Assembly (NCBI GenBank): GCA_046563655.1
Contig: CM102286.1
Location: forward strand, 11,408,001-11,472,000
Source of the DNA: Yuukianura sp. NJ FZ-2021
Taxonomy: Eukaryota
DNA length: 64,000 bases
Direction of reading: 5' to 3'
Part shown: in pieces, positions 34,310 through 47,093 of the stretch
Numbering within the stretch: position 1 is the stretch's first letter
How the letters are laid out: every line of letters begins with the position of its first letter
Translations under genes and position numbers: made by a program
Notes under the pieces: generated by a model
Told to the model about the DNA's origin: nothing
Databases searched by the model: none
Seen by the model: only the letters and a program-made list of their open reading frames with translations

Positions 34310-35744
34310 TTATGGCGTATACTTAAAGTTGAGAAGTAAGTTGATGACTGATCCTATGACGATTGAAATTACCTCTAGCAGGAAATGCTTATATTCGATT
34401 TTAATCAACTCTCCTACACGTAGGCATAGCGGCTTCTGACCCTTCCAGTACCTCAACACCTCCTTTTGCTTCATGTAGTCAAGGTTTCTTGCTGGATTGG
34501 TGATGTTGAGTACTAGGAAAGTTCGTGAACAGGTACTGATACTGACTGATGCTTTGAGGGTCAAGAACAGCGCCACTCCAAAAACTAGGTCGATGATTAC
34601 AGCGAGGCCGAAGAAAATCCCGGATAGATGCATCTTGAGAATCACAAATGTCATCAAAATTACTTGACCCAAGCAGCAGTAGTATTCGAACAACAGTAGA
34701 TAGTAGTAGTTTGTGTTCACGTCCTGGACGACTAGACGCAGACCGGTGTAGGATAGACACCAATCAAGGTTATCTTGCATCTTTACTTGCTGACTAAATA
34801 GAAGGTCGTAGAAGTTTTAGTTTAAAGCGTCATCGACATCTGACTTCAAGAACTAAACCTTTGTCACTAATTTTTGAGTTGACTAAAAGACCTTTGACCT
34901 AAGACCTTTGACCTGACCTTTTGACTTTGACCTTACCAGAGTTGACGAACCCATTTGTTGACTATGTTGACGAAGAAGATTGCTAGTTGGCAGAGAAATA
35001 GCATGTGACATGCCCCATGGGCGTTTGCACATAGCATTGCGACTGACATTCCAATACGAGCAAGTACCGTAACTACGCGTGCCACGTCATTGGTCATCTG
35101 CATCACATCGTTGGTTTCCTCTACAAAGAAGAAGTTTATCAGTGCAACTTCCACAGCTTCCTGCATGCTTGAAAAAGGATGCTCAATGTAGAATCCAATG
35201 AAAGGTACAGGAATCGCCAGAACGCAGAAGCAGACCATGACCAGTGTTTCCAGAAATAACAACGTTTCCAGACCATCAGGCTCATCTAGCGATCCATGAT
35301 GGTACTTCACACCTTACACAAAAAATGTTTCCAGTAAGTTGACACCATAATTTTAATTTGTAGTTTTGAAAGCTCACTAGATAGATGGTTGAAGTACAAA
35401 TAGCCGTCCATGCCCACGGCGTACCGAGGGAAATTCAAGACGAGGAAAATTTGAATGAGAAGTATTGTGAAAAAGAGAGTGGCAACAGAAAGCATCAAGA
35501 AACGCTCCGACAGATTAAGTGACACAAGGAGCGTTGCAGTGAGGATCAAGAAGGTGATGGCCACGACTTGGAAGGAAATTGCACAAAAGGAGATGAGTCT
35601 GGACATGCGGATTTTCTGTTTGGACGTAGATTGGACGCAGGAGCATCTTCCGTCAACAATTGCAAGATGAAATGGAAAAACACAGAAGAAGGATGGTATT
35701 TTGCAGGCGAAGATTACGTATTTGAATGATTCTCGGGAGATCAT
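34310..35744 (-). CDS. Second putative GR-like multi-TM chemoreceptor, 3 exons
   Basis: Three hydrophobic ORFs joined by short introns. C-terminus YWKGQKPLCLRVGELIKIEYKHFLLEVISIVIGSVINLLL. Layout parallels 23786-25053. Confidence 0.65.
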
Positions 35745-36454
35745 TCCGAGTAGTTGGACGTCGGTGGAGCAGAAGGGATCTGGTTAGAATGTTAATATAT
35801 CGATGAATGTTAAATACGATGCTTATTTCCTTCCCTCGAATTTTATTCTCGAGTTGGTTTAATGTTCTGAAACACTTAAAAAATTGAACACTGGCCCTGT
35901 GCCTCTCGTTACCGCTCGATATTTCTTTTCCAGGACTAAGGAGTCTTTATTTTTTAATTCCAGCATGCAATAAAAATATTCTGAGAAACATACATCGCTT
36001 TTTTTCTGTAAGAGGATACAGTTTTTAAGCACGCTTTTTTTTAATCAATTTTTTTTGCAGTTGAAAACTGAATTCCGTTGAATACTTCACTGCAATCATA
36101 CTAGTTTTAATACACATTGGCACACATATTCATGCCTTAAATAGATGTGTCTCTGACGCCGAATTTAACTATTTTCAAAGTATGCTGTCGAATAACATGT
36201 ATTGCAAATACACGATAAACATAAGCCAGAAAATTGAGCACCACCCACCACCACACTGGTTTCATTAGAAACAAGGTTACTGAAATATACACAATCCCCA
36301 GAGACGTTAGCACAGATTGAAGGACGATCCATGTTTTGAGGCGACAAATGTTTCTCTAAATAATAAATACAAAATTTATTTAATTTAAATCTAGTTGTCC
36401 CAATTAAAAAATTTCATTCCTAAGAAGATAGTTTCCGCATTTATTCGCATTACA

Positions 36455-37279: not shown

Positions 37280-37880
37280 TTATTCGGCGTAAGCGGCAGT
37301 TGTGCTTTCCGGGACATGAGGAACTTCCTTGATGATCTCCTTCGTGATGACCACTGGCTTCTCAATTACCTTCTCTACGATTTGAGTGCCAGCGACTACG
37401 TTTAACACAAAAATTTAAGGTCAGTCACTCAACCATATCTTATGAATGACCAAGAATCATACGATTCGCAGCCTGATGTGATTAGATGCAAAGACTTACC
37501 GCACATTTTGCAAGACAAACGACAGTGAACCGACATGTAGCTTGGATTGGCAGAGCACTCTCCGCTCTTAGCCCATCCACCACACCGTTTGTCGTTGTCC
37601 CCGCATCGGCCTGCGTAAGTTTATTGAAGCAATATTTAAAAAAAACGCAATTAAATGTTTCTTTTTTGCAGTATATCTCACACTGGTGACAGGAACTCGG
37701 GCAGTTAGGGAGCATGTAGGCTGCGTTGTCGTGGCATCCGTTGTTGATTTTGCCATCTTTCTTCGTAATCATGGCGGCTGCCCATCCGGCACATCTACTG
37801 TCTTTATCCAGACACTCTCCGTTTACGCCAATTCCCCCCAGACACCCAAGCAGGGTGAAAACAAAGAACAAATTCGCCAT
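37280..37880 (-). CDS. Secreted protein with two ShK-toxin-like domains and a V/E/K/P-rich tail. Exons 37880-37682, 37610-37500, 37395-37280
   Basis: Signal peptide, then CLDKDSRCAGWA...C...YMLPNCPSSCHQC and CGDNDKRCGGWAKSGECSANPSYMSVHCRLSCKMC, then tail IVEKVIEKPVVITKEIIKEVP. Confidence 0.85.
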
Positions 37881-38579
37881 TTTGCAAACCATTTTTAAAA
37901 CAAATTTTTCTAAGCACAATAGCTGCTTTCACTACAAATTGAATACAGTATTTCAATCATTTAGAGGTATATTTATACTTTATTCAACCAAATCAAGCTT
38001 TAACTCGAACGATTATTCTGTGGTAACATTTTAATTAAATTAATTAATTTATCAATCAAGGAAGGCAAACGTTGGTTACAAGTGTGCTTCGAGGAACTGT
38101 TCACACATCATAAGAAGCAGACGCTTCTACCACAATTTGAATACACGTTGCATAACTGACGCCATCTAAGAATTCAAAAACCAATTTTCTAAGCTTTGAC
38201 CTCACTGAAAGTTAAATTTCTAAGGAACAAAATTTCTAAGGTTTTTCAGTGTCAAAATCATGATGCGGAATAATACAAATAAACATGGCGTCACTTTTAT
38301 AGTAGACAATTCGGAGAGTTCACGGATGGAGGTTTGTTCAAGTGTACAGGAAAAGGTTGTGCGCTGTAATACATTAGAGGTATTGCTCACTTTTCATGGA
38401 AAAACAATGAGTTAAGGAGTTTGAACATTTAACCTAAAGCTTTTGCAAAACCACGTTCATGGACTTTGAGAAAGGCAACCGCAAATTATACTTAACATCA
38501 ATTAAGATCCACTTATAACTTCCAGTTCTCATATTTCAGGAAGTACGGAAAGCAAACTGCATTTTTAAAAAGATTCAAT

Positions 38580-39121
38580 ATGGTACCATTTCAAGTGTTA
38601 CTGTTAGCATTTTTTCTTGTTTGCGTTTTGATTTATCCAGTTAAAGCCATTGTAAGTTTTAAATTCCAAAACCTTTTCTTTTTTACATAAACGAATTATT
38701 TTTGGTAAACGAATTTTTTATTTTAAATTTCTGCTTAAAGCAATGCAGCCTTCCGTCGCCGAAAGGAAGTATGTATCTCAGCGATCCAGACGATACGGCT
38801 GAAGTGATTCGTGAAAATTGTCCAGAACTTAGAGATCGCCCCCCTTCGTCATGGATCAAAGGAATTCAAATAAAGGGGAATTGCTTGGATGTTCCTCCGC
38901 TGACGGCTATTGCCACTTTCGAAGGTTCTGATGGAACGACGTTTGGTGGCGGAGAGTTCCAAAATGCCGCTATTTTTCTTGGTAGATGCAACTCTCATGG
39001 ATTCCACATCGTCGATCTACGGTTCGGATCTAACGGAAAACCTGTACGAGTGGAGAATCGCTTCTTGCGATATTCGGGAAAAAATGGGGATGGCGGTAGG
39101 CACTACTACGTCATCCAGTAA
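38580..39121 (+). CDS. Secreted Tae2/Dae2 (BPSL0067-like) peptidoglycan amidase homologue with apparent catalytic substitutions. Exons 38580-38651, 38741-39121
   Basis: Signal peptide MVPFQVLLLAFFLVCVLIYPVKA, then SWIKG..IKGNC..VPPLTAIATF, NAAIFL..C...GFHIVD, R.LRY, YYVIQ, following the Tae2/Dae2 motif order. Confidence 0.8.
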
Positions 39122-39271
39122 AACTAACTTTTCATGCGGTTTTTTATTTGGTTTTTCTCGTTTTTCCGGGTTTTGTGCAAGGTTTATTGTTTTGTTACCA
39201 AAATTAAACAGTGAAGTAAATTTTATTTATTTTTGTTGCACCTATTTCCACTTTATTGGACATTATTAAGT

Positions 39272-39540
39272 GGTAGCACGCCATTGTATCAATTGAATTG
39301 TATCAACTGCCATTGCATCAACTGAATTGTGTCAATTTGAATTGTATCAACTGGTCAATTGTATCAACGACTAATTGTATCAACGAGTGTAATGCTTAGT
39401 TCAGCTTAGGTTAGGTTAGGTTACGTTGGTTGATACAAGTAGCCGTTGACACAATTGAGCGTTGATACAATTCAAATTGACACAATTCAGTTGATGCAAT
39501 GGCAGTTGATACAATTCAATTGACACAATGGCATGGAACC
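39272..39540 (-). mobile_element. 269-bp foldback MITE with TTGTATCAA sub-repeats and central (TTAGG)n
   Basis: 8-bp TSD TATTAAGT. Near-identical reverse complement of 60111-60379. Confidence 0.92.
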
Positions 39541-39763
39541 TATTAAGTAAACCCCACTTTTTTTCTAGAATTGTGAGGAAATTCGATTACAGGAAAATCC
39601 AGTTTCTTAATGGTTTCTTGGAATAGTAAAAATCAGTCAAATTTTTTTTTGGTGCAAGTACTTAAAGCTTTTCCTCCAAACGAACTATTACAATTAACTT
39701 TTCAGCCGTTTGCCAAAAGGTCGTAGAATCCAGAAGCAAGAACTTTTCTTTAAAGTAACCAGC

Positions 39764-40072
39764 ATGAATTCGTCAATTGTTCGGTTTGCAGTATTGACTG
39801 TCGTACTAGTCATTTCATTTTCAGGAAACAATGGTAAGGCTATACTAAAAATAGATATTCTGAACAGTGTGTTAGACTATTTTGATCTTTTGTTTTATGC
39901 AGAAGTGAATGGGGATATGTCGACGTGTACGCAGAACTACGTGGAAGCGTGTTCCAGGTATTGCGGCAGTGGACTGGATACAGTGAGGCGCTGTTGTAGA
40001 AGATATGGCCATGGAGGAGGCCAATGCAGTGGAACCGACGACAGTGGGATTGGAGATGTTTACTGCTGTTAA
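39764..40072 (+). CDS. Diapausin-like secreted cysteine-rich peptide. Exons 39764-39833, 39903-40072
   Basis: Signal peptide, then VEACSRYC...RRCCRRYGHGGGQC...VYCC, which follows the diapausin C-x3-C-x9-CC-R-x-x-G...C...YC pattern. Confidence 0.75.
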   Translation: MNSSIVRFAVLTVVLVISFSGNNGKAILKIDILNSVLDYFDLLFYAEVNGDMSTCTQNYVEACSRYCGSGLDTVRRCCRRYGHGGGQCSGTDDSGIGDVYCC

Positions 40073-40090
40073 TTAACATTTCATTCAAAA

Positions 40091-40684
40091 TAAACTTCTT
40101 GCAAAGACGATGTAAATAAGTATCGTCAGATCAATTATATAGAATTCCCGCGCCGGATATTGTTGACCTAGGCCTCTGATATTGTTAGAGGTTATTTGAG
40201 GTCAAACAGCATTCGGCATTATATTAATATTAATGTTAATATTATATTAATTAATATTAATATTATTTATATATTAATATGTACATTAATATTAATTAAT
40301 ATAATTAATATTAATCCTCGCATCGTCAAACATCCATCCCCGAATTTCTGAATTGCGGGGAAAAAAAAGATGACCTTGACCTTTGACCCTGTTAGAGGTC
40401 ACTCAAGCTCATCAAAATCCGATCCCCGCATATCCCTTCCGAGTCTGCCCATCCGTTTCCGTAATGTAAATGGAGCATAACCTTGACATATGGCACCAAT
40501 AGAGGTCACTTAAGGTGAATCCAAAAACTGATTTTTAGTCATCTGGTTTGTATTTAGTACTCATTAAAAAAGCTGCTTAGAAATCAGTGCAGTGGTTGTC
40601 GAGTTATAAACATTACAGACAGACGGAAAGACGGACGGAGGAACGGACGGACAAGACGATCCCTATAAGTATCTGACGATACTT
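40091..40684 (-). mobile_element. HINE/DINE-1-like family A copy with an internal AT-rich expansion (~40220-40315)
   Basis: Same sub-TIR, 3' end and GACG microsatellite as 32313-33024, in reverse orientation. Confidence 0.8.
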
Positions 40685-41216
40685 AAAAATGTACTTGACC
40701 TTGACCTTTGTCCCGGAATTTGGCCACTTCCGATCAAACCAGAAACCGATTAGTCACCCCTGTACCATGTGAAGGTCATCTGCGAAGACAGGTTGAAAAT
40801 CGGTTCAGGGGTTCCTGAGTTATAGACGCTCGTAGAATGAGCGACGCCATTTTGCAACTTGCAGCGTCTATATCTCCAGAACCGTATGTCAAAGGTCAAG
40901 GTCACCTGCAGCAAAGTTGTTCCTCTCATTGAAATGAACAACTTTTGTGGAGGCCATTTTTCCAAATTCCGTCGAAAATGTACTTGACCTTGACCTTTGA
41001 CCCGGAAGTTGGCCACTTCCGGTCAAACCGGAAACAACTTGTTCACCCCTGGACCATGTGTAGTTCATCTGTGAAGACAGATTGAAAATCGGTCCAGCGG
41101 TTCCAGAGATATTGTGGCTAGTATAGTCGGACGGACAGACGGACGGACAGACGGACGGACAGACGGACGGACAGACGGACGGCCATTACGATCCCTATAA
41201 GTATCTGACGATACTT
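40685..41216 (-). mobile_element. HINE-like element with a family A 5' end and a family B-like body; truncated at the adjacent copy
   Basis: Ends in acgatccctataagtatctgacgatactt. Internal units resemble the reverse complement of 61490-61920. Confidence 0.7.
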
Positions 41217-41292
41217 AATAATTGCAATAAAAAATGTTGTTGTTTTTTGAGAACATCTTAAATTTGGCTTGAAGTACCTGCCTGAAGTTATT

Positions 41293-41745
41293 AAGTATCG
41301 TCAGATACTTATAGAGATCGTCTTGTCCGTCCGTCCGTCTATCCGTCCGTCCGTTTCTCCGTCCGTCTGTAACGCTTATAACTTGAGAACCGCTACACTG
41401 ATCAATATTTGAATTCACCAAAGGTTTTGCTCCATTTATAATACGGAGACGAATATGGACAGCCTTGGAAGAGGTTTGCATTGATGGACTTTTGGTTACC
41501 TCGAGTGACCTCTAACAGGGCCAAGGCTCAAGGTCATCGTTTTTTCTACAATTCGGAAACGGATGGACCGATTCGGAAGGTGTTTCCGGGGATGGATGTT
41601 TGACGATATGAGGACTAAAATTACAAATGTTGCTTGACCTCGAGTGACCTCTAATAATATCAGAAGTCAAGGTCAACAATATCCTGTGCGGGAACTTTCT
41701 ATAATTGATCTGACGATACTTATTTATACCGTCTTTGCAAGTTTA
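41293..41745 (+). mobile_element. HINE/DINE-1-like family A copy, shorter
   Basis: aagtatcgtcagatactt, GTCC repeats, then atctgacgatactt and gtctttgcaag. Confidence 0.8.
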
Positions 41746-42397
41746 TTTCTTCTAACAAACATGTAGTATCAAGCATGTGGTTAGTTTTACAATAACCATG
41801 CTCTATGACGTCGATGTTAAGCTTGATTACTAGTTTTGCTTCAATTTTTTTAAAAACCAGAATATATTTGCGTTTCAATATATAACAAGTTTTGACTCTG
41901 ATTTTTTCCCTCGATTACTAGTTTGGAAGTGTTACACGTGTCTGTAATTGCATACATGCAATTACATAAAAACAACTGCATAAAACTGAACAATTACAGA
42001 TTGAGAAGACTGAACTATCGCTAATAAAAAATTGACTAATAATAATAAAATTGCAAATTCCATCTTGTCCACTGCTTTAATTGTTTTTTAATGTATTTTC
42101 TTCAGTTAGGAGATTATGCATGGGAATTTGGAAAATGACGAGAGAAGTGGAAGTGCAAGCTACACTAACTCATTAATTTTCAAATTTATTTTTGTGTTGA
42201 TTTTCCTCAAAGAATTTTGTTTTGTTGTGTCAGTCCAAGGTTATTTGGTCTAAAGGATTCTAGAGATTAGATTCCATTTTTATATTCCAATTTAATTACA
42301 GGTAATCAATTATACTTAAATTGAGGAAAATTGAACAAAGCGTTCAGTATATTTTCAAATTGTTCCGGTTTAGGTTGTCAGCAGAACGTTCACGAAA

Positions 42398-43773
42398 ATG
42401 CATTTTACAAATTTTAGCAGTGCCCTTGCAGCGTTTCTCATCCACTTGCTTTTAATTCCTGTTTCAACAAATTCTCAGCAACGGGAAAAGTATTCAGAAA
42501 AAGAACTAGCCGCGTTGCAATCGGTACTTAACGAACAACATTGAAACATTTTTATACATTTATAAATGTAAAAATACATTTTATATAAATAGTTCCGTTC
42601 CGCAGTCAATAGCTTCTTGTATTTGGAATACCAGCACGAGGATGCCTATCTCATCAATTGGCTTCGAAGTGAGAACATAATAAACCGTATTATAATAGTA
42701 GAATTGTATTATTTCGTTTTAACAAATTTTTGAAAACAAATACATATATTTTATTTTCAGCGAAGAACTTGGATGTAGAAAAGGCCAAAGCTCTATTGGA
42801 AAGAGTAAAAACTTTTTTTTATGCAATTTTGTTATAAAGTTTTGTAAATTGTTTTTTCAAATTTGCTTTTTTGTTTCCCCCCAGAGTTTGAAATTTCGAA
42901 AGGAAAATGGGATTGACAAAATTACAAGTTCAAATGAAATGAGGGAATTAGAGAAGTCGCTGCCTTCCGCTCTAGGGTCTGCCGTTGACAAGGAAGGAAG
43001 TCCCGCGTGTATTCAAATTTTTTCCAAGTGGGACATTCGGAAGCAAATGCTTTCTGGCAAGGGCGAGGCTATGCGTCGCTTTCCGTTTTACGTATTCGAA
43101 TCAATGACGACGCTCATGCGCAACAGTAATTCTACCCAATGGGTTTTGTTGGTAGACCTCAGCAACTTCAATCTAAGGACACACGCATGCATTGCGTGTA
43201 ATTTATTAAAAATATGCGTTATATAATAATAGCTTAAGTAAAAGATGACATCCAAAGGCAATTGATTCTGTTAATTTTCATAGGTCTTCCTTTTTACGTG
43301 GACATTGTCACAACCTATGAAACACATTACCCCAGCACTGCAAAATTATTATTGGCCATCAACGGTTCGTTTATTTCTTCATAGAAAATATTTTGCTTGA
43401 GAAAATTTGTTTTAATTTAATTTTGGTTTCTTTTCAGCACCAAGCGTTTTTGAAAGTGAGTCAACAAATTCTAAAAGCCAAAGTTATACAATCTAATGTA
43501 TCCGTACAAATGTATATTAATCGAAATCGTTTCAATAGCACCACTAAGATTGATGACTCCACTCATGACTCCACCCACAAAGAAAGCGTTTAAGGTCAGG
43601 ATTAATTTATTTCATTCGTTATTTGGAGAGATTGATGAATCTTCTGTTGGTAGGTTTTTGGCCTGGATAGAGCAGAATGGCAAAGTTTCCTTTTGCAGCA
43701 TTTCAACCCAGATCAACTCACAAAGAAACATGGTGGAACAGCACTGAATTACCCGCCTTCACGACGGGTTTGA
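42398..43773 (+). CDS. SEC14/CRAL-TRIO lipid-binding protein with a signal-peptide-like N-terminus; multi-exon, including an 18-nt exon (43438-43455)
   Basis: DAYLINWLRAKNLDVEKA, SLKFRKENGID, DKEGSP, YETHYP...INAPSVF, DQLTKKHGG. Confidence 0.85.
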
Positions 43774-44172
43774 ATTTGACCATATTAATGAAGAGGAAGT
43801 AAGCCGACAGACAACATGAAAATTAAAGAGGAAAACATGATTGTCTTAATTGACCATTAATTTTTAGGAGACTACGCGTTAGGATTCTTGCTTGCTAACA
43901 GCTTGGTTATGTTTAACATTTTTAGTTTAGTTTAGTGTAGTTATTTTTATAATTTTTAGTGAAAAAGAAATTAATCAACGAACATTGAACTTGAGTGTTT
44001 GACACTTATGAAAATAAGTATGAAGGTAATACTATTTCAAGCGACTCATCTTTGATTGTAAGAGCAGGAAAGAGAAGTTTTCTTTTATTTGGAAATCCAG
44101 AATTCTAAATGTGTCACAATAAAATTGTAGTTTCCAATTTTCAAAATTATTTTTGAAATTCTGAAATAGGAA

Positions 44173-44487
44173 TTAGTCGCAGCAGCATCGTTGCTGGATA
44201 AGATCTCCTCTGCATCCGAAAGCAGAAAAGGCACAACTCTCGGGACATATAATGTCGTGTCCACAAGCTGAGAGACGACAACCATGATGGCGGGATGGTT
44301 GCTTCGCGTGTCCTACCGCAGCGACCACATCAGAACCTATATGTCCAGAACATTTATTGTAGTTTTCAATTTACGACAGAACAGCAGCTTTAGTTACTAA
44401 TCACTTACCGTCACAAACGGTGATTCCCAACAAAAATACAACGAGGAAGCCCAAAACGAAAAACGACTGTCGAGTACATCGTTCCAT
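44173..44487 (-). CDS. Secreted 8-Cys defensin-like peptide, absent from the ORF track. Exons 44487-44409 and 44336-44173
   Basis: MERCTRQSFFVLGFLVVFLLGITVCD, a gtaagt donor, then GSDVVAAVGHAKQPSRHHGCRLSACGHDIICPESCAFSAFGCRGDLIQQRCCCD*. Confidence 0.72.
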
Positions 44488-44679
44488 TTCAAAATCAGGG
44501 TTCCGACCAAAATTTCCAGAGTTTGTTTTCAGAATTTGTTTCTGGAATGATGGTTTTAGCGAAACAACTCAGTCCTTTTAATAGGATTTGGTCCCGGGCA
44601 AACACACAAGTGTCGAAATCCGCCATTTTTAGAATTTCAATTCAAAGAAGTCTTTGTTTTGCCGCTTGGGATTTACGTA

Positions 44680-46338
44680 CAGTGGCGGCCAAAATTATTG
44701 GGACACCCAGTGTAAAAATTTTTAAACAACGATAACTTTTTAACGAAGTGTCATAATTAATAACTCGATACGTCATTTTATTCAGAAAATAGTTCTTTCC
44801 AATCTCCCAAGTTTTTAGAACTTGAAGTCAAGCGGTTTATTTTATGGAATTTTTTAAACTCAAAACGTCAAAATTCTCGCGGACAAAATTATTGGGACAG
44901 CTGGGGTTTTGGAGCGAAATCAACAGTTATTGGCATTAGTTTTCCATCGGTAAGTCACCTAACTTAATTTTTAGTACTTACTAACACTTGTAGTTAATTG
45001 TTGATTAGTTTTTCAGAGATGGTTGGCAATATCAAGGAAGTTCCAGGACCGATACGCGACCTAATCATTCAAGGTTGGGTTGGTGACGAAAATGGTACAA
45101 GATCAGTTCGTCAGCTGTCCGAATTGTACCACGTACCCAAGTCAACAGTACATAACATCATACAAAGGTACCTCAAGACCGGCCATGTCGAAAACAAAGT
45201 CGGAAGGGGCCGTAAACCAATTCTTACTGAGAGGGAAGTTCGCCTGATCACCAAGAAAGTGAAGCTGGACAATCGAGTAAGCGCCGTAGAACTGTCCAAA
45301 ACACTCAAAAGTGACCTTGACACCGAAGTCAGCCCCCGTACTGTTCAAAGAGTACTTTGCAATTAGAATTTGAGAGCTTTCAAGCCGTTGCGAAAACCGT
45401 TTGTGTCAAAGAAGAATGCAGCCAAGAGATTGAAGTTTGCAAAAGAACACGTTATGAAGCCGGTATCGTTTTGGGAAAAAATTTTATGGTCGGACGAGTC
45501 AAAGTTCAACGTTTTGGGGTCAGATGGACGAAAATATGTGCGAAGAGGTACTGGTGAAGCCTTAAAACCAAAGAACCTCAATGTGACTGTGAAACACGGA
45601 GGAGGCAGTGTCATGGTTTGGGGCTGCATGGCTTCAAACAGGGCTGAAACCTTGGAATTTATTAACGGAATTATGGATAAATTCGGCTCACTTCGTGTCA
45701 AGGTCACTTTTGAGTGTTTTGGACAGTTCTACGGCGCTTACTCGATTGTCCAGCTTCACTTTCTTGGTGATCAGGCGAACTTCCTACTCAGTAAGAATTG
45801 GTTTACGGCCCCTTCCGACTTTGTTTTCGACATGGCCGGTCTTGAGGTACCTTTGTATGATGTTATGTACTGTTGACTTGGGTACGTGGTACAATTCGGA
45901 CAGCTGACGAACTGATTTTGTACCATTTTCGTCACCAACCCAACCTTGAATGATTAGGTCGCGTATCGGTCCTGGAACTTCCTTGATATTGCCAACCATC
46001 TCTGAAAAACTAATCAACAATTAACTACAAGTGTTAGTAAGTACTAAAAATTAAGTTAGGTGACTTACCGATGGAAAACTAATGCCAATAACTGTTGATT
46101 TCGCTCCAAAACCCCAGCTGTCCCAATAATTTTGTCCGCGAGAATTTTGACGTTTTGAGTTTAAAAAATTCCATAAAATAAACCGCTTGACTTCAAGTTC
46201 TAAAAACTTGGGAGATTGGAAAGAACTATTTTCTGAATAAAATGACGTATCGAGTTATTAATTATGACACTTCGTTAAAAAGTTATCGTTGTTTAAAAAT
46301 TTTTACACTGGGTGTCCCAATAATTTTGGCCGCCACTG
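44680..46338. mobile_element. Palindromic Tc1-family element with two left arms (~655 bp each) and a defective transposase
   Basis: TA|CAGTGGCGGCC...GGCCGCCACTG|TA. Tc1 motifs GRGRKP, WSDESKF and KHGGGSVMVWG are present. Confidence 0.95.
45019..45684 (+). pseudogene. Truncated Tc1 transposase
   Basis: HTH region and first catalytic Asp are present. There is an in-frame TAG at 45364-45366, and the frame is cut before the D34E portion. Confidence 0.9.
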
Positions 46339-47093
46339 TACCCTTATTTCTTGAAAATCCTATATATTTTTACTCTTTTATAACTTTTACTTCGCAGTTG
46401 GAAACCGAAATGGTTTTTCCAACTAGTCACATGCCACAGCACTGTAAATTGACCCCAGGACACTGACTTATGAGTACTTGAAGGAAAAGGAAGTACAGGA
46501 ACCCTCTCTCGGCTAATGCAAGGAGAAGACGCTGCATCTACATTTCTGGTGGCAATGCCCTTATCACTGACACGATCTTAGATTTATGATAGTTTCGTCC
46601 AACGCTTTTACTTAATCAAAAGATCTTCACGCTACAAACTGAATGAGTAGAAAAAAAGACATTTCGTTTGGTTCCTGTGTAACTATAAGTAGAAACCTCC
46701 AAAATTTAAATTGGGTCTCTTCTAACTACAGGTTTTCAATCTGACACCACAGTTAGACGGTGTATCAAATTTGTTAGACGAAGAAGATTTCAATGATTCT
46801 AGATCGTAACGTTAGGTCAACGCCCAACTTCAAAACCCATTTCGGATTTCTCTCTGTCAAACGATGCCTTCATCTACAATCTATTCGTAACTTAACCAAG
46901 GCTCAACTAAAAACCAAAGATAATATTCCTTGTGGATCAACAACGCAGTAGCCGAAGCGCAGGCGCAAACATTTAAATGACATATATGTTTTATTTCATT
47001 TTTTTCCGGAATTTTTTTGTAAATCAATCGTCAGGGAAGTGTAAAAATCTGCTGGAGATAAGCACCAATGTATCCGATTTCCTTCTTAAATGT

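Follow-up and report, generated by a model that had tools for sequence, protein, structure and literature searches.

When genes for small secreted proteins of different families lie side by side in an animal genome, do they form one defence unit, or are they neighbours of separate origin? The question is raised by a 7.2-kb interval (37280-44487) in a 64-kb stretch of DNA from Yuukianura sp. NJ FZ-2021 (contig CM102286.1, positions 11,408,001 to 11,472,000); this whole stretch is called the window, and all coordinates refer to it unless another contig is named. The window has a GC content of about 40% and is of eukaryotic character. Reading both strands of 36.8-45.2 kb uncovered five neighbouring intron-bearing genes, named A to E, each of which opens with a short hydrophobic exon that resembles a signal peptide; these secretion signals were judged by eye on the translated exons. 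A first-pass annotation of the same DNA had read the interval as a multi-family antimicrobial island, and all of the objects that it listed are present where it placed them.

The explanation that we favour, and to which we give slightly less than an even chance, treats the block as five lineage-specific neighbours, each with an origin of its own, whose products are secreted or belong to the secretory pathway; they sit in a gap between ordinary animal genes that is filled with non-autonomous transposons. One of them, gene B, would go back to Tae2, a type VI amidase toxin of bacteria, by way of the Dae2 lineage of arthropods. It would have turned into a pseudoenzyme that kept its signal peptide, four structural cysteines and most of the residues that define the fold, and in which the nucleophile Cys was exchanged for Thr and the general-base His for Asn. 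Such a protein would most likely still bind a ligand (peptidoglycan or some other) in the groove that once took up the substrate, and leave it uncut, in the manner of non-catalytic peptidoglycan recognition proteins (PGRPs).

Gene B is a Dae2-family gene without the catalytic dyad

Dae2 is a textbook case of the domestication of a bacterial weapon by animals, and it was reported as a gene of the Acari (ticks and mites). In the accessible part of a preprint it is presented as a proven immune-effector family of ticks (bioRxiv 10.1101/2020.04.10.036376). Gene B (38580-39121, plus strand; 150 codons) has two exons, the signal-peptide exon at 38580-38651 and a second exon at 38741-39121. Its protein has no match in Pfam, and a word-based homology search was also blank. 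An exhaustive phmmer search, in contrast, returned 18 homologues with E values of 1e-3 or lower (best 7.9e-30). The named homologues are proteins from the springtail Allacma fusca, a Bradysia cluster, a scorpion, a mite and Haemaphysalis, as well as tick and horseshoe-crab proteins that are annotated as 'domesticated amidase effector 2-like'. For the other ten no organism is given, and two of these ten are labelled only 'hypothetical protein'. The presence of the Allacma protein among the named homologues is consistent with a springtail-like genome.

A profile of 19 sequences, i.e. gene B and its homologues, matched the structure of Tae2 from Salmonella Typhi (PDB 6WIN, 'Type 6 secretion amidase effector 2') with an E value of 1.4e-19, and all 19 aligned sequences matched the NCBIfam model BPSL0067_fam, which describes a papain-like peptidoglycan amidase. 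When a second profile was built from 17 homologues, i.e. without the window copy and without its closest relative P0001, it scored gene B with 104.6 bits (E 3.4e-31) among the 1222 open reading frames of the window; no second Dae2 copy was present among these 1222 frames. The phmmer search and the profile and NCBIfam matches together show that the gene, which had been called Dae2-like in the first-pass annotation, is a true homologue of the Tae2/Dae2 family.

Gene B has the form of a secreted eukaryotic gene: it has a signal exon (by inspection), a GT-AG intron and animal genes on both sides. This bears on the origin of related sequences. Allacma, Bradysia and Centruroides sequences have already been placed in the dae2 clade by a preprint (10.64898/2026.03.13.711553, 2026), the accessible part of which raises contamination or secondary transfers as explanations. 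The situation of gene B argues against contamination for a springtail-like Dae2, because the gene is intron-bearing and is set among animal genes on a springtail-like chromosome. With the Dae2 proteins of ticks and other chelicerates, which derive from the type VI secretion system effector Tae2, gene B shares sequence homology, a signal peptide and a eukaryotic gene structure; the mature protein has about 125 residues, and the TAIATF and AAIF core and the structural cysteines are conserved. It differs from them in that its host is a springtail-like hexapod and not a chelicerate, and in its long branch.

A further difference from Tae2 and Dae2 concerns the active site. The accessible part of the tick preprint gives C23 and H73 as the catalytic residues of Tae2 and C43 as the catalytic residue of Dae2 (bioRxiv 10.1101/2020.04.10.036376). 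Through the alignment of 6WIN with the profile, C23 and H73 of Tae2 were mapped to the Cys column of the segment 'ecvalv' and to the His column of the segment 'qhaAiF'. Gene B has Thr in the former column, the one that corresponds to Dae2 C43, and Asn in the latter; the same assignment is obtained with MAFFT and with hmmalign. The catalytic Cys is kept in 13 of the 18 homologues. It is replaced in four (Ser in P0001, P0009 and P0018, Pro in P0010), and P0008 has a gap at this place. The catalytic His is kept in all homologues but one (17/18), the exception being P0018 with Arg. By name, the sequences without the Cys include a 'dae2-like' protein from the horseshoe crab Tachypleus (Ser), a sequence from Logan (Pro) and the protein of the tick Haemaphysalis (Ser, with Arg in place of the His).

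The Gln of the DQW motif is also absent from gene B. The remainder of the protein is better preserved: of the 35 columns with a conservation of 70% or more among the remaining 17 homologues, gene B keeps 24, including all four structural cysteines, and P0001 keeps 27. Gene B is most likely a non-cleaving pseudoenzyme, since Thr and Asn replace the catalytic Cys and His in the alignment while the residues that define the fold are retained. The first-pass annotation had offered the bacterial wall as a possible target by family precedent, and as a target of enzymatic action it fails because both catalytic residues are missing. Loss of the catalytic Cys recurs among the aligned eukaryotic homologues, and Dae2 proteins without catalytic activity may form a recurrent class that has gone unrecognised and may be widespread.

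In the phylogenetic tree gene B pairs with P0001 (support 98/93), and the terminal branches of the two differ greatly in length (1.53 for gene B vs 0.28 for P0001). The two proteins are identical at 56 of 125 aligned residues (45%), and their pairwise dN/dS is 0.16-0.30, a value computed with a saturated dS. The gene for P0001 lies at 262-784 of a soil-metagenome contig, L001, and has the same layout as gene B, with the same signal exon and with an intron in phase 0 that lies one codon ahead of the first conserved Cys. P0001 has Ser at the position of the nucleophile and has kept the His. From this distribution, parsimony suggests that the nucleophile was lost before gene B and P0001 separated and that the His would have been lost later, in the lineage of the window.

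Gene B is thus a natural copy of the Dae2 family without a catalytic dyad. A search of the literature, with bioRxiv supplements outside its scope, found no description of natural Dae2-family proteins of this kind. A working analogy for what such a protein may do is provided by the PGRPs. Recognition PGRPs are non-catalytic, they are derived from amidase PGRPs, and they act as binders or sensors. What gene B has in common with them is a peptidoglycan amidase fold that lost its catalytic residues and was kept as a secreted protein. Its fold and its origin are different from theirs, and the comparison is meant as an analogy only. On these grounds a binding role is a plausible candidate function for gene B. 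If its protein still binds the cell wall, it would parallel the path from enzyme to receptor that the PGRPs have taken.

Genes A, C, D and E and their family assignments

The five genes are not related to each other. When every exon of genes A to E was compared with the window by tblastn, each of them matched itself, and the sole additional match was a mutual one between the two ShK domains of gene A. This agrees with the first-pass annotation, which had described structurally unrelated genes as opposed to a tandem array of paralogues.

Gene A (37280-37880, minus strand; 141 codons) has three exons at 37682-37880, 37500-37610 and 37280-37395, with splice phases taken from the sequence. The predicted protein consists of a signal-peptide-like start, the domains ShK1 and ShK2, and a tail rich in Val, Glu, Lys and Pro. 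Both domains exceed the Pfam cut-off for ShK (PF01549) of 20.9 bits, with 25.1 and 33.5 bits (E 2.5e-5 and 6.3e-8), and both show the six-Cys frame on inspection; ShK2 also matches a solved ShK-like domain (PDB 2MCR, E 2.6e-4). The gene is hence a secreted-type tandem ShK gene, as it had been labelled. The ShK toxin of sea anemones blocks channels with a Lys-Tyr dyad. At the place taken to correspond to this dyad, both domains of gene A have, as judged by eye, a Tyr, which is preceded by Ser or Ala and not by Lys. The tail (37283-37395, minus strand) is a repeat-like stretch, VEKVIEKPVVITKEIIKEVPHVP, with a weak, sub-threshold match to IMCp (E 0.0011).

Gene D (42398-43773, plus strand; about eight exons) is a CRAL-TRIO/SEC14-like gene. 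One exon (42885-43196) reached 24.9 bits with the Pfam CRAL_TRIO model, for which the cut-off is 22.6. A hydrophobic segment at 42398-42523, which resembles a signal or an anchor, lies N-terminal to a region of the CRAL_TRIO_N type. SEC14/CRAL-TRIO proteins are usually cytosolic. The domain score confirms the SEC14 gene of the earlier description, and the hydrophobic N-terminus is compatible with the signal peptide given there. We know of no antimicrobial precedent for ShK or SEC14 domains in their own right.

Gene C (39764-40072, plus strand; exons 39764-39833 and 39903-40072; 79 codons) and gene E (44173-44487, minus strand; exons 44409-44487 and 44173-44336; 80 codons, with the ending CCCD) are predicted to encode secreted peptides with eight cysteines. 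In each of them a signal exon and a GT-AG intron precede an exon that contains all eight. Both genes have a GTAAG donor and a phase-matched acceptor, and their eight Cys fall within about 55 residues. Each is followed by an AATAAA, which in gene C lies directly 3' of the stop codon.

The first-pass annotation had labelled gene C diapausin-like and gene E defensin-like, and neither label was recovered in our searches. At E ≤ 10 Pfam offered only a sub-threshold TSP_1 match for gene C (E 0.065-0.38) and nothing for gene E; no diapausin or defensin model was matched by either at this threshold, with the presence of a diapausin model in the Pfam copy being unconfirmed. A sequence search of the PDB gave no diapausin match for gene C at E ≤ 10, including 2E2F, and no defensin match for gene E; the entry that it did give for gene C was a thrombospondin repeat (7R84, E 0.088, below threshold), and the rows for gene E were chance matches. 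The Atlas contained nothing usable for gene C. For gene E it provided weak leads, all below 0.9, to scorpion short toxins (Toxin_5, 0.78-0.80) and to an arthropod cluster with 20% gamma-thionin members (0.75), scores that lie in a range often reached by shuffled proteins. Single-sequence AlphaFold models of the two peptides were of low confidence (pLDDT 54.6 for C and 51.2 for E), and a Foldseek comparison of these models with the PDB produced no match for C and one meaningless row for E (E 8.9).

Diapausins and defensins of Collembola have already been published, and the accessible part of that report gives the diapausin motif as C1-x3-C2-x9-14-C3C4-x9-11-C5-x6-9-C6 and names InterPro, along with Phyre2 against 2E2F, as the means by which its diapausins had been identified (PMC10051947). 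Gene C follows this motif from C1 to C5 (C-x3-C-x9-CC-x9-C), as do 1322 of 200000 composition-matched shuffles (0.66%). It misses the full six-Cys motif, since 12 residues instead of 6-9 separate C5 from the next Cys. As far as the accessible part of that report goes, gene C is similar to the collembolan diapausins in its signal peptide, its small size, its Cys spacing and, by eye, a CCR..G stretch (PMC10051947); it is unlike them in the longer last loop, in two extra cysteines and in the lack of a match to 2E2F or Pfam. The core of the thrombospondin type 1 repeat, CSxxCGxG...RxC...GGxxCxG, fits gene C about as well as the diapausin frame. The loose frame C..CxxxC..C..CxC, generic for CS-alpha/beta peptides and used here with generic spacing ranges, fits gene E, as it does 1.3% of shuffles, and the nearest Atlas clusters of the gene are the two named above; unlike CS-alpha/beta defensins it has no Pfam defensin match, a low-confidence model and an unusual terminal CCC. 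The two labels may be kept as leads, drawn from the spacing of the cysteines.

Could C and E, one or both, be chance open frames beside real genes? Neither of them has a homologue, a family or a confident fold, and the Atlas recognition value of gene E is 2222, below the value of 2300 that 91 in 100 proteins of known families reach. The blank homology results are weak evidence, because the word-based search that failed with C and E also missed gene B, which the exhaustive search found. Against chance frames stand the hydrophobic signal exons together with the strong donors, the matched acceptors, the density of cysteines and the downstream AATAAA. A crude scan of the 64-kb window for a signal exon followed by a GT..YAG intron and an open frame also argues against them. 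It gave 16 models, of which three contained at least six Cys: gene C, gene E and a read-through variant of gene A. All three lie inside the block, and no such model occurred in 11 control sequences (one reversed and ten Markov-1 sequences); this density scan was made post hoc and on one window. It missed gene B because the intron of B has an AAG acceptor. A separate scan of the window found credible Cys-rich open frames only at 37.4-44.4 kb. Given these results we consider it highly improbable that C or E is not a gene.

Island, neighbourhood or chance

In the reading that the first-pass annotation had proposed, the block is a co-regulated island, whose members are co-induced on infection and jointly hit bacteria, fungi and ion channels. 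In its favour, five genes that carry secretion signals lie next to each other. One of them, gene B, comes from a proven immune-effector family of ticks; A and B are a divergent pair, with start codons 699 bp apart; the Cys-rich secreted models in the window are confined to the block; and gene C fits five of the six positions of the collembolan diapausin frame. The promoters, the neighbours of the gene B homologue and the failure of the enzymatic and family labels point the other way. The window contains 27 copies of the kB-like consensus GGGRNYYYYY, where 20.2 were expected. Within 37.2-44.7 kb there are two sites, one in a repeat and the other in an exon of the SEC14 gene, and the promoters of A, B, C and E contain none. 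The GATA-type consensus WGATAR was found once in the 1106 bp of these four promoters, with 1.5 expected, and the four have no 8-mer in common. Apart from this single WGATAR, shared kB and GATA promoter sites of the kind that the first-pass annotation had in mind are neither enriched nor common to the four promoters.

A scan of metagenomes for P0001 led to one contig, L001, and this contig of 5.7 kb carries the gene B homologue without a homologue of A, C, D or E and without a nucleotide match to the window. In sum, what stands of the antimicrobial island is a set of unrelated genes with one member from an immune-effector family, Dae2; the enzymatic wall target does not stand, the diapausin and defensin labels were not borne out by searches of Pfam, the PDB, the Atlas or folds, and shared promoter sites were not found. 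We regard a co-regulated antimicrobial island as possible but unsupported, and as unlikely.

The neighbourhood of unrelated genes that we favour has to contend with the same blank promoters, and further results weigh against it. Taken alone, the gene B sequence did not match 6WIN, and it stays below the curated cut-off of BPSL0067_fam with 22.6 against 27 bits; the acceptor of its intron is AAG; and its long branch may reflect a new function but equally well relaxed constraint or decay. The word-based searches yielded no homologue of C or E, so both genes are carried by the logic of their gene models.

The main rival to this explanation makes use of these points. It holds that the block is a chance neighbourhood, i.e. 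a fast-evolving, transposon-rich interval of young or decaying orphan genes without a common function, in which gene B is a relic close to a pseudogene. Repeats make up 27% of the 7.2-kb interval, a Tc1 palindrome adjoins it, relatives of C and E were not detectable in the word-based search, and the promoters have no motif in common. Gene B has lost the Cys, the His and the Gln of DQW and sits on a terminal branch more than five times as long as that of P0001. Other properties of the genes speak against this rival. None of the five reading frames is broken, their signal exons are canonical and their GT-AG introns match in phase; gene B has preserved its structural cysteines and about two thirds of the conserved columns, and its dN/dS is below 1; and the 11 composition-matched or reversed controls were free of models that combine a signal with a Cys-rich exon. 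We consider chance a doubtful explanation, with perhaps a quarter of the total weight.

The favoured neighbourhood can also be stated in a stricter form. The springtail Dae2 lineage would then have lacked its nucleophile since before the split of gene B from its sister, and its protein would have been kept as a secreted, non-cleaving binder of peptidoglycan (a sensor, an opsonin or a decoy) in a locus of unrelated secreted peptides that were gathered as a defence neighbourhood. In this version a bacterial toxin would first have become an immune enzyme and later a receptor-like pseudoenzyme. We consider it rather improbable. An immune role of A, C, D and E may be suspected, as may some co-regulation, and the products of all five genes are probably secreted, to judge from their first exons. 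No springtail locus that pairs Dae2 with other secreted peptides was found in the literature search.

Repeats and flanking genes

The repeats for which the interval had been called transposon-rich were all confirmed by inverted-repeat arms, hairpins or transposase domains. Miniature inverted-repeat transposable element (MITE) or HINE-like sequence accounts for the repeat fraction of the interval given above. The MITE-like palindrome (39266-39546) is an inverted repeat with arms of 86 nt that are 93% complementary and are separated by 109 nt. Between genes C and D, at 40098-41741, there are three copies of one HINE/DINE-1-like element, two direct (about 40098-40690 and 40686-41222, plus strand) and one inverted (41283-41741, minus strand), recognised through four repeat families and five inverted pairs. 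Each copy ends in (GACG/GACA)n, which reads (GTCY)n on the other strand, and in a hairpin AAGTATC-TGAC-GATACTT; the inverse sequence is present at the 5' end. A microsatellite of the (GTCY)n type and a 3' hairpin are features of HINE/DINE-1-like Helentron derivatives in the accessible part of their description (PMC4067079). The copies share with these derivatives, as there described, terminal inverted AAGTATCGTCAGAT / ATCTGACGATACTT, the internal (GTCY)n-type microsatellite and the 3' hairpin (PMC4067079). No autonomous partner of the copies was seen within the window, where the partner was not specifically examined. No Rfam family was matched at E ≤ 1 between 36 and 47 kb.

Beyond gene E, a Tc1/mariner-type element (44677-46341) forms a perfect palindrome with arms of 647 nt, 100% complementary, around a centre of 371 nt, and it encodes helix-turn-helix transposase domains of the Tc3/Sleeping-Beauty type. 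The palindrome is the product of a rearrangement that is very recent, or else it is an artefact of the assembly.

The block is flanked by ordinary animal genes, which encode EHD, PP2A-B56, ADH, an SDF transporter, a GMC oxidoreductase, an ionotropic glutamate receptor and an MFS transporter. The block is also bordered, at 34310-35783 on the minus strand, by several long open reading frames with multi-pass hydrophobic segments and without a Pfam match, which may represent a divergent chemoreceptor-like gene.

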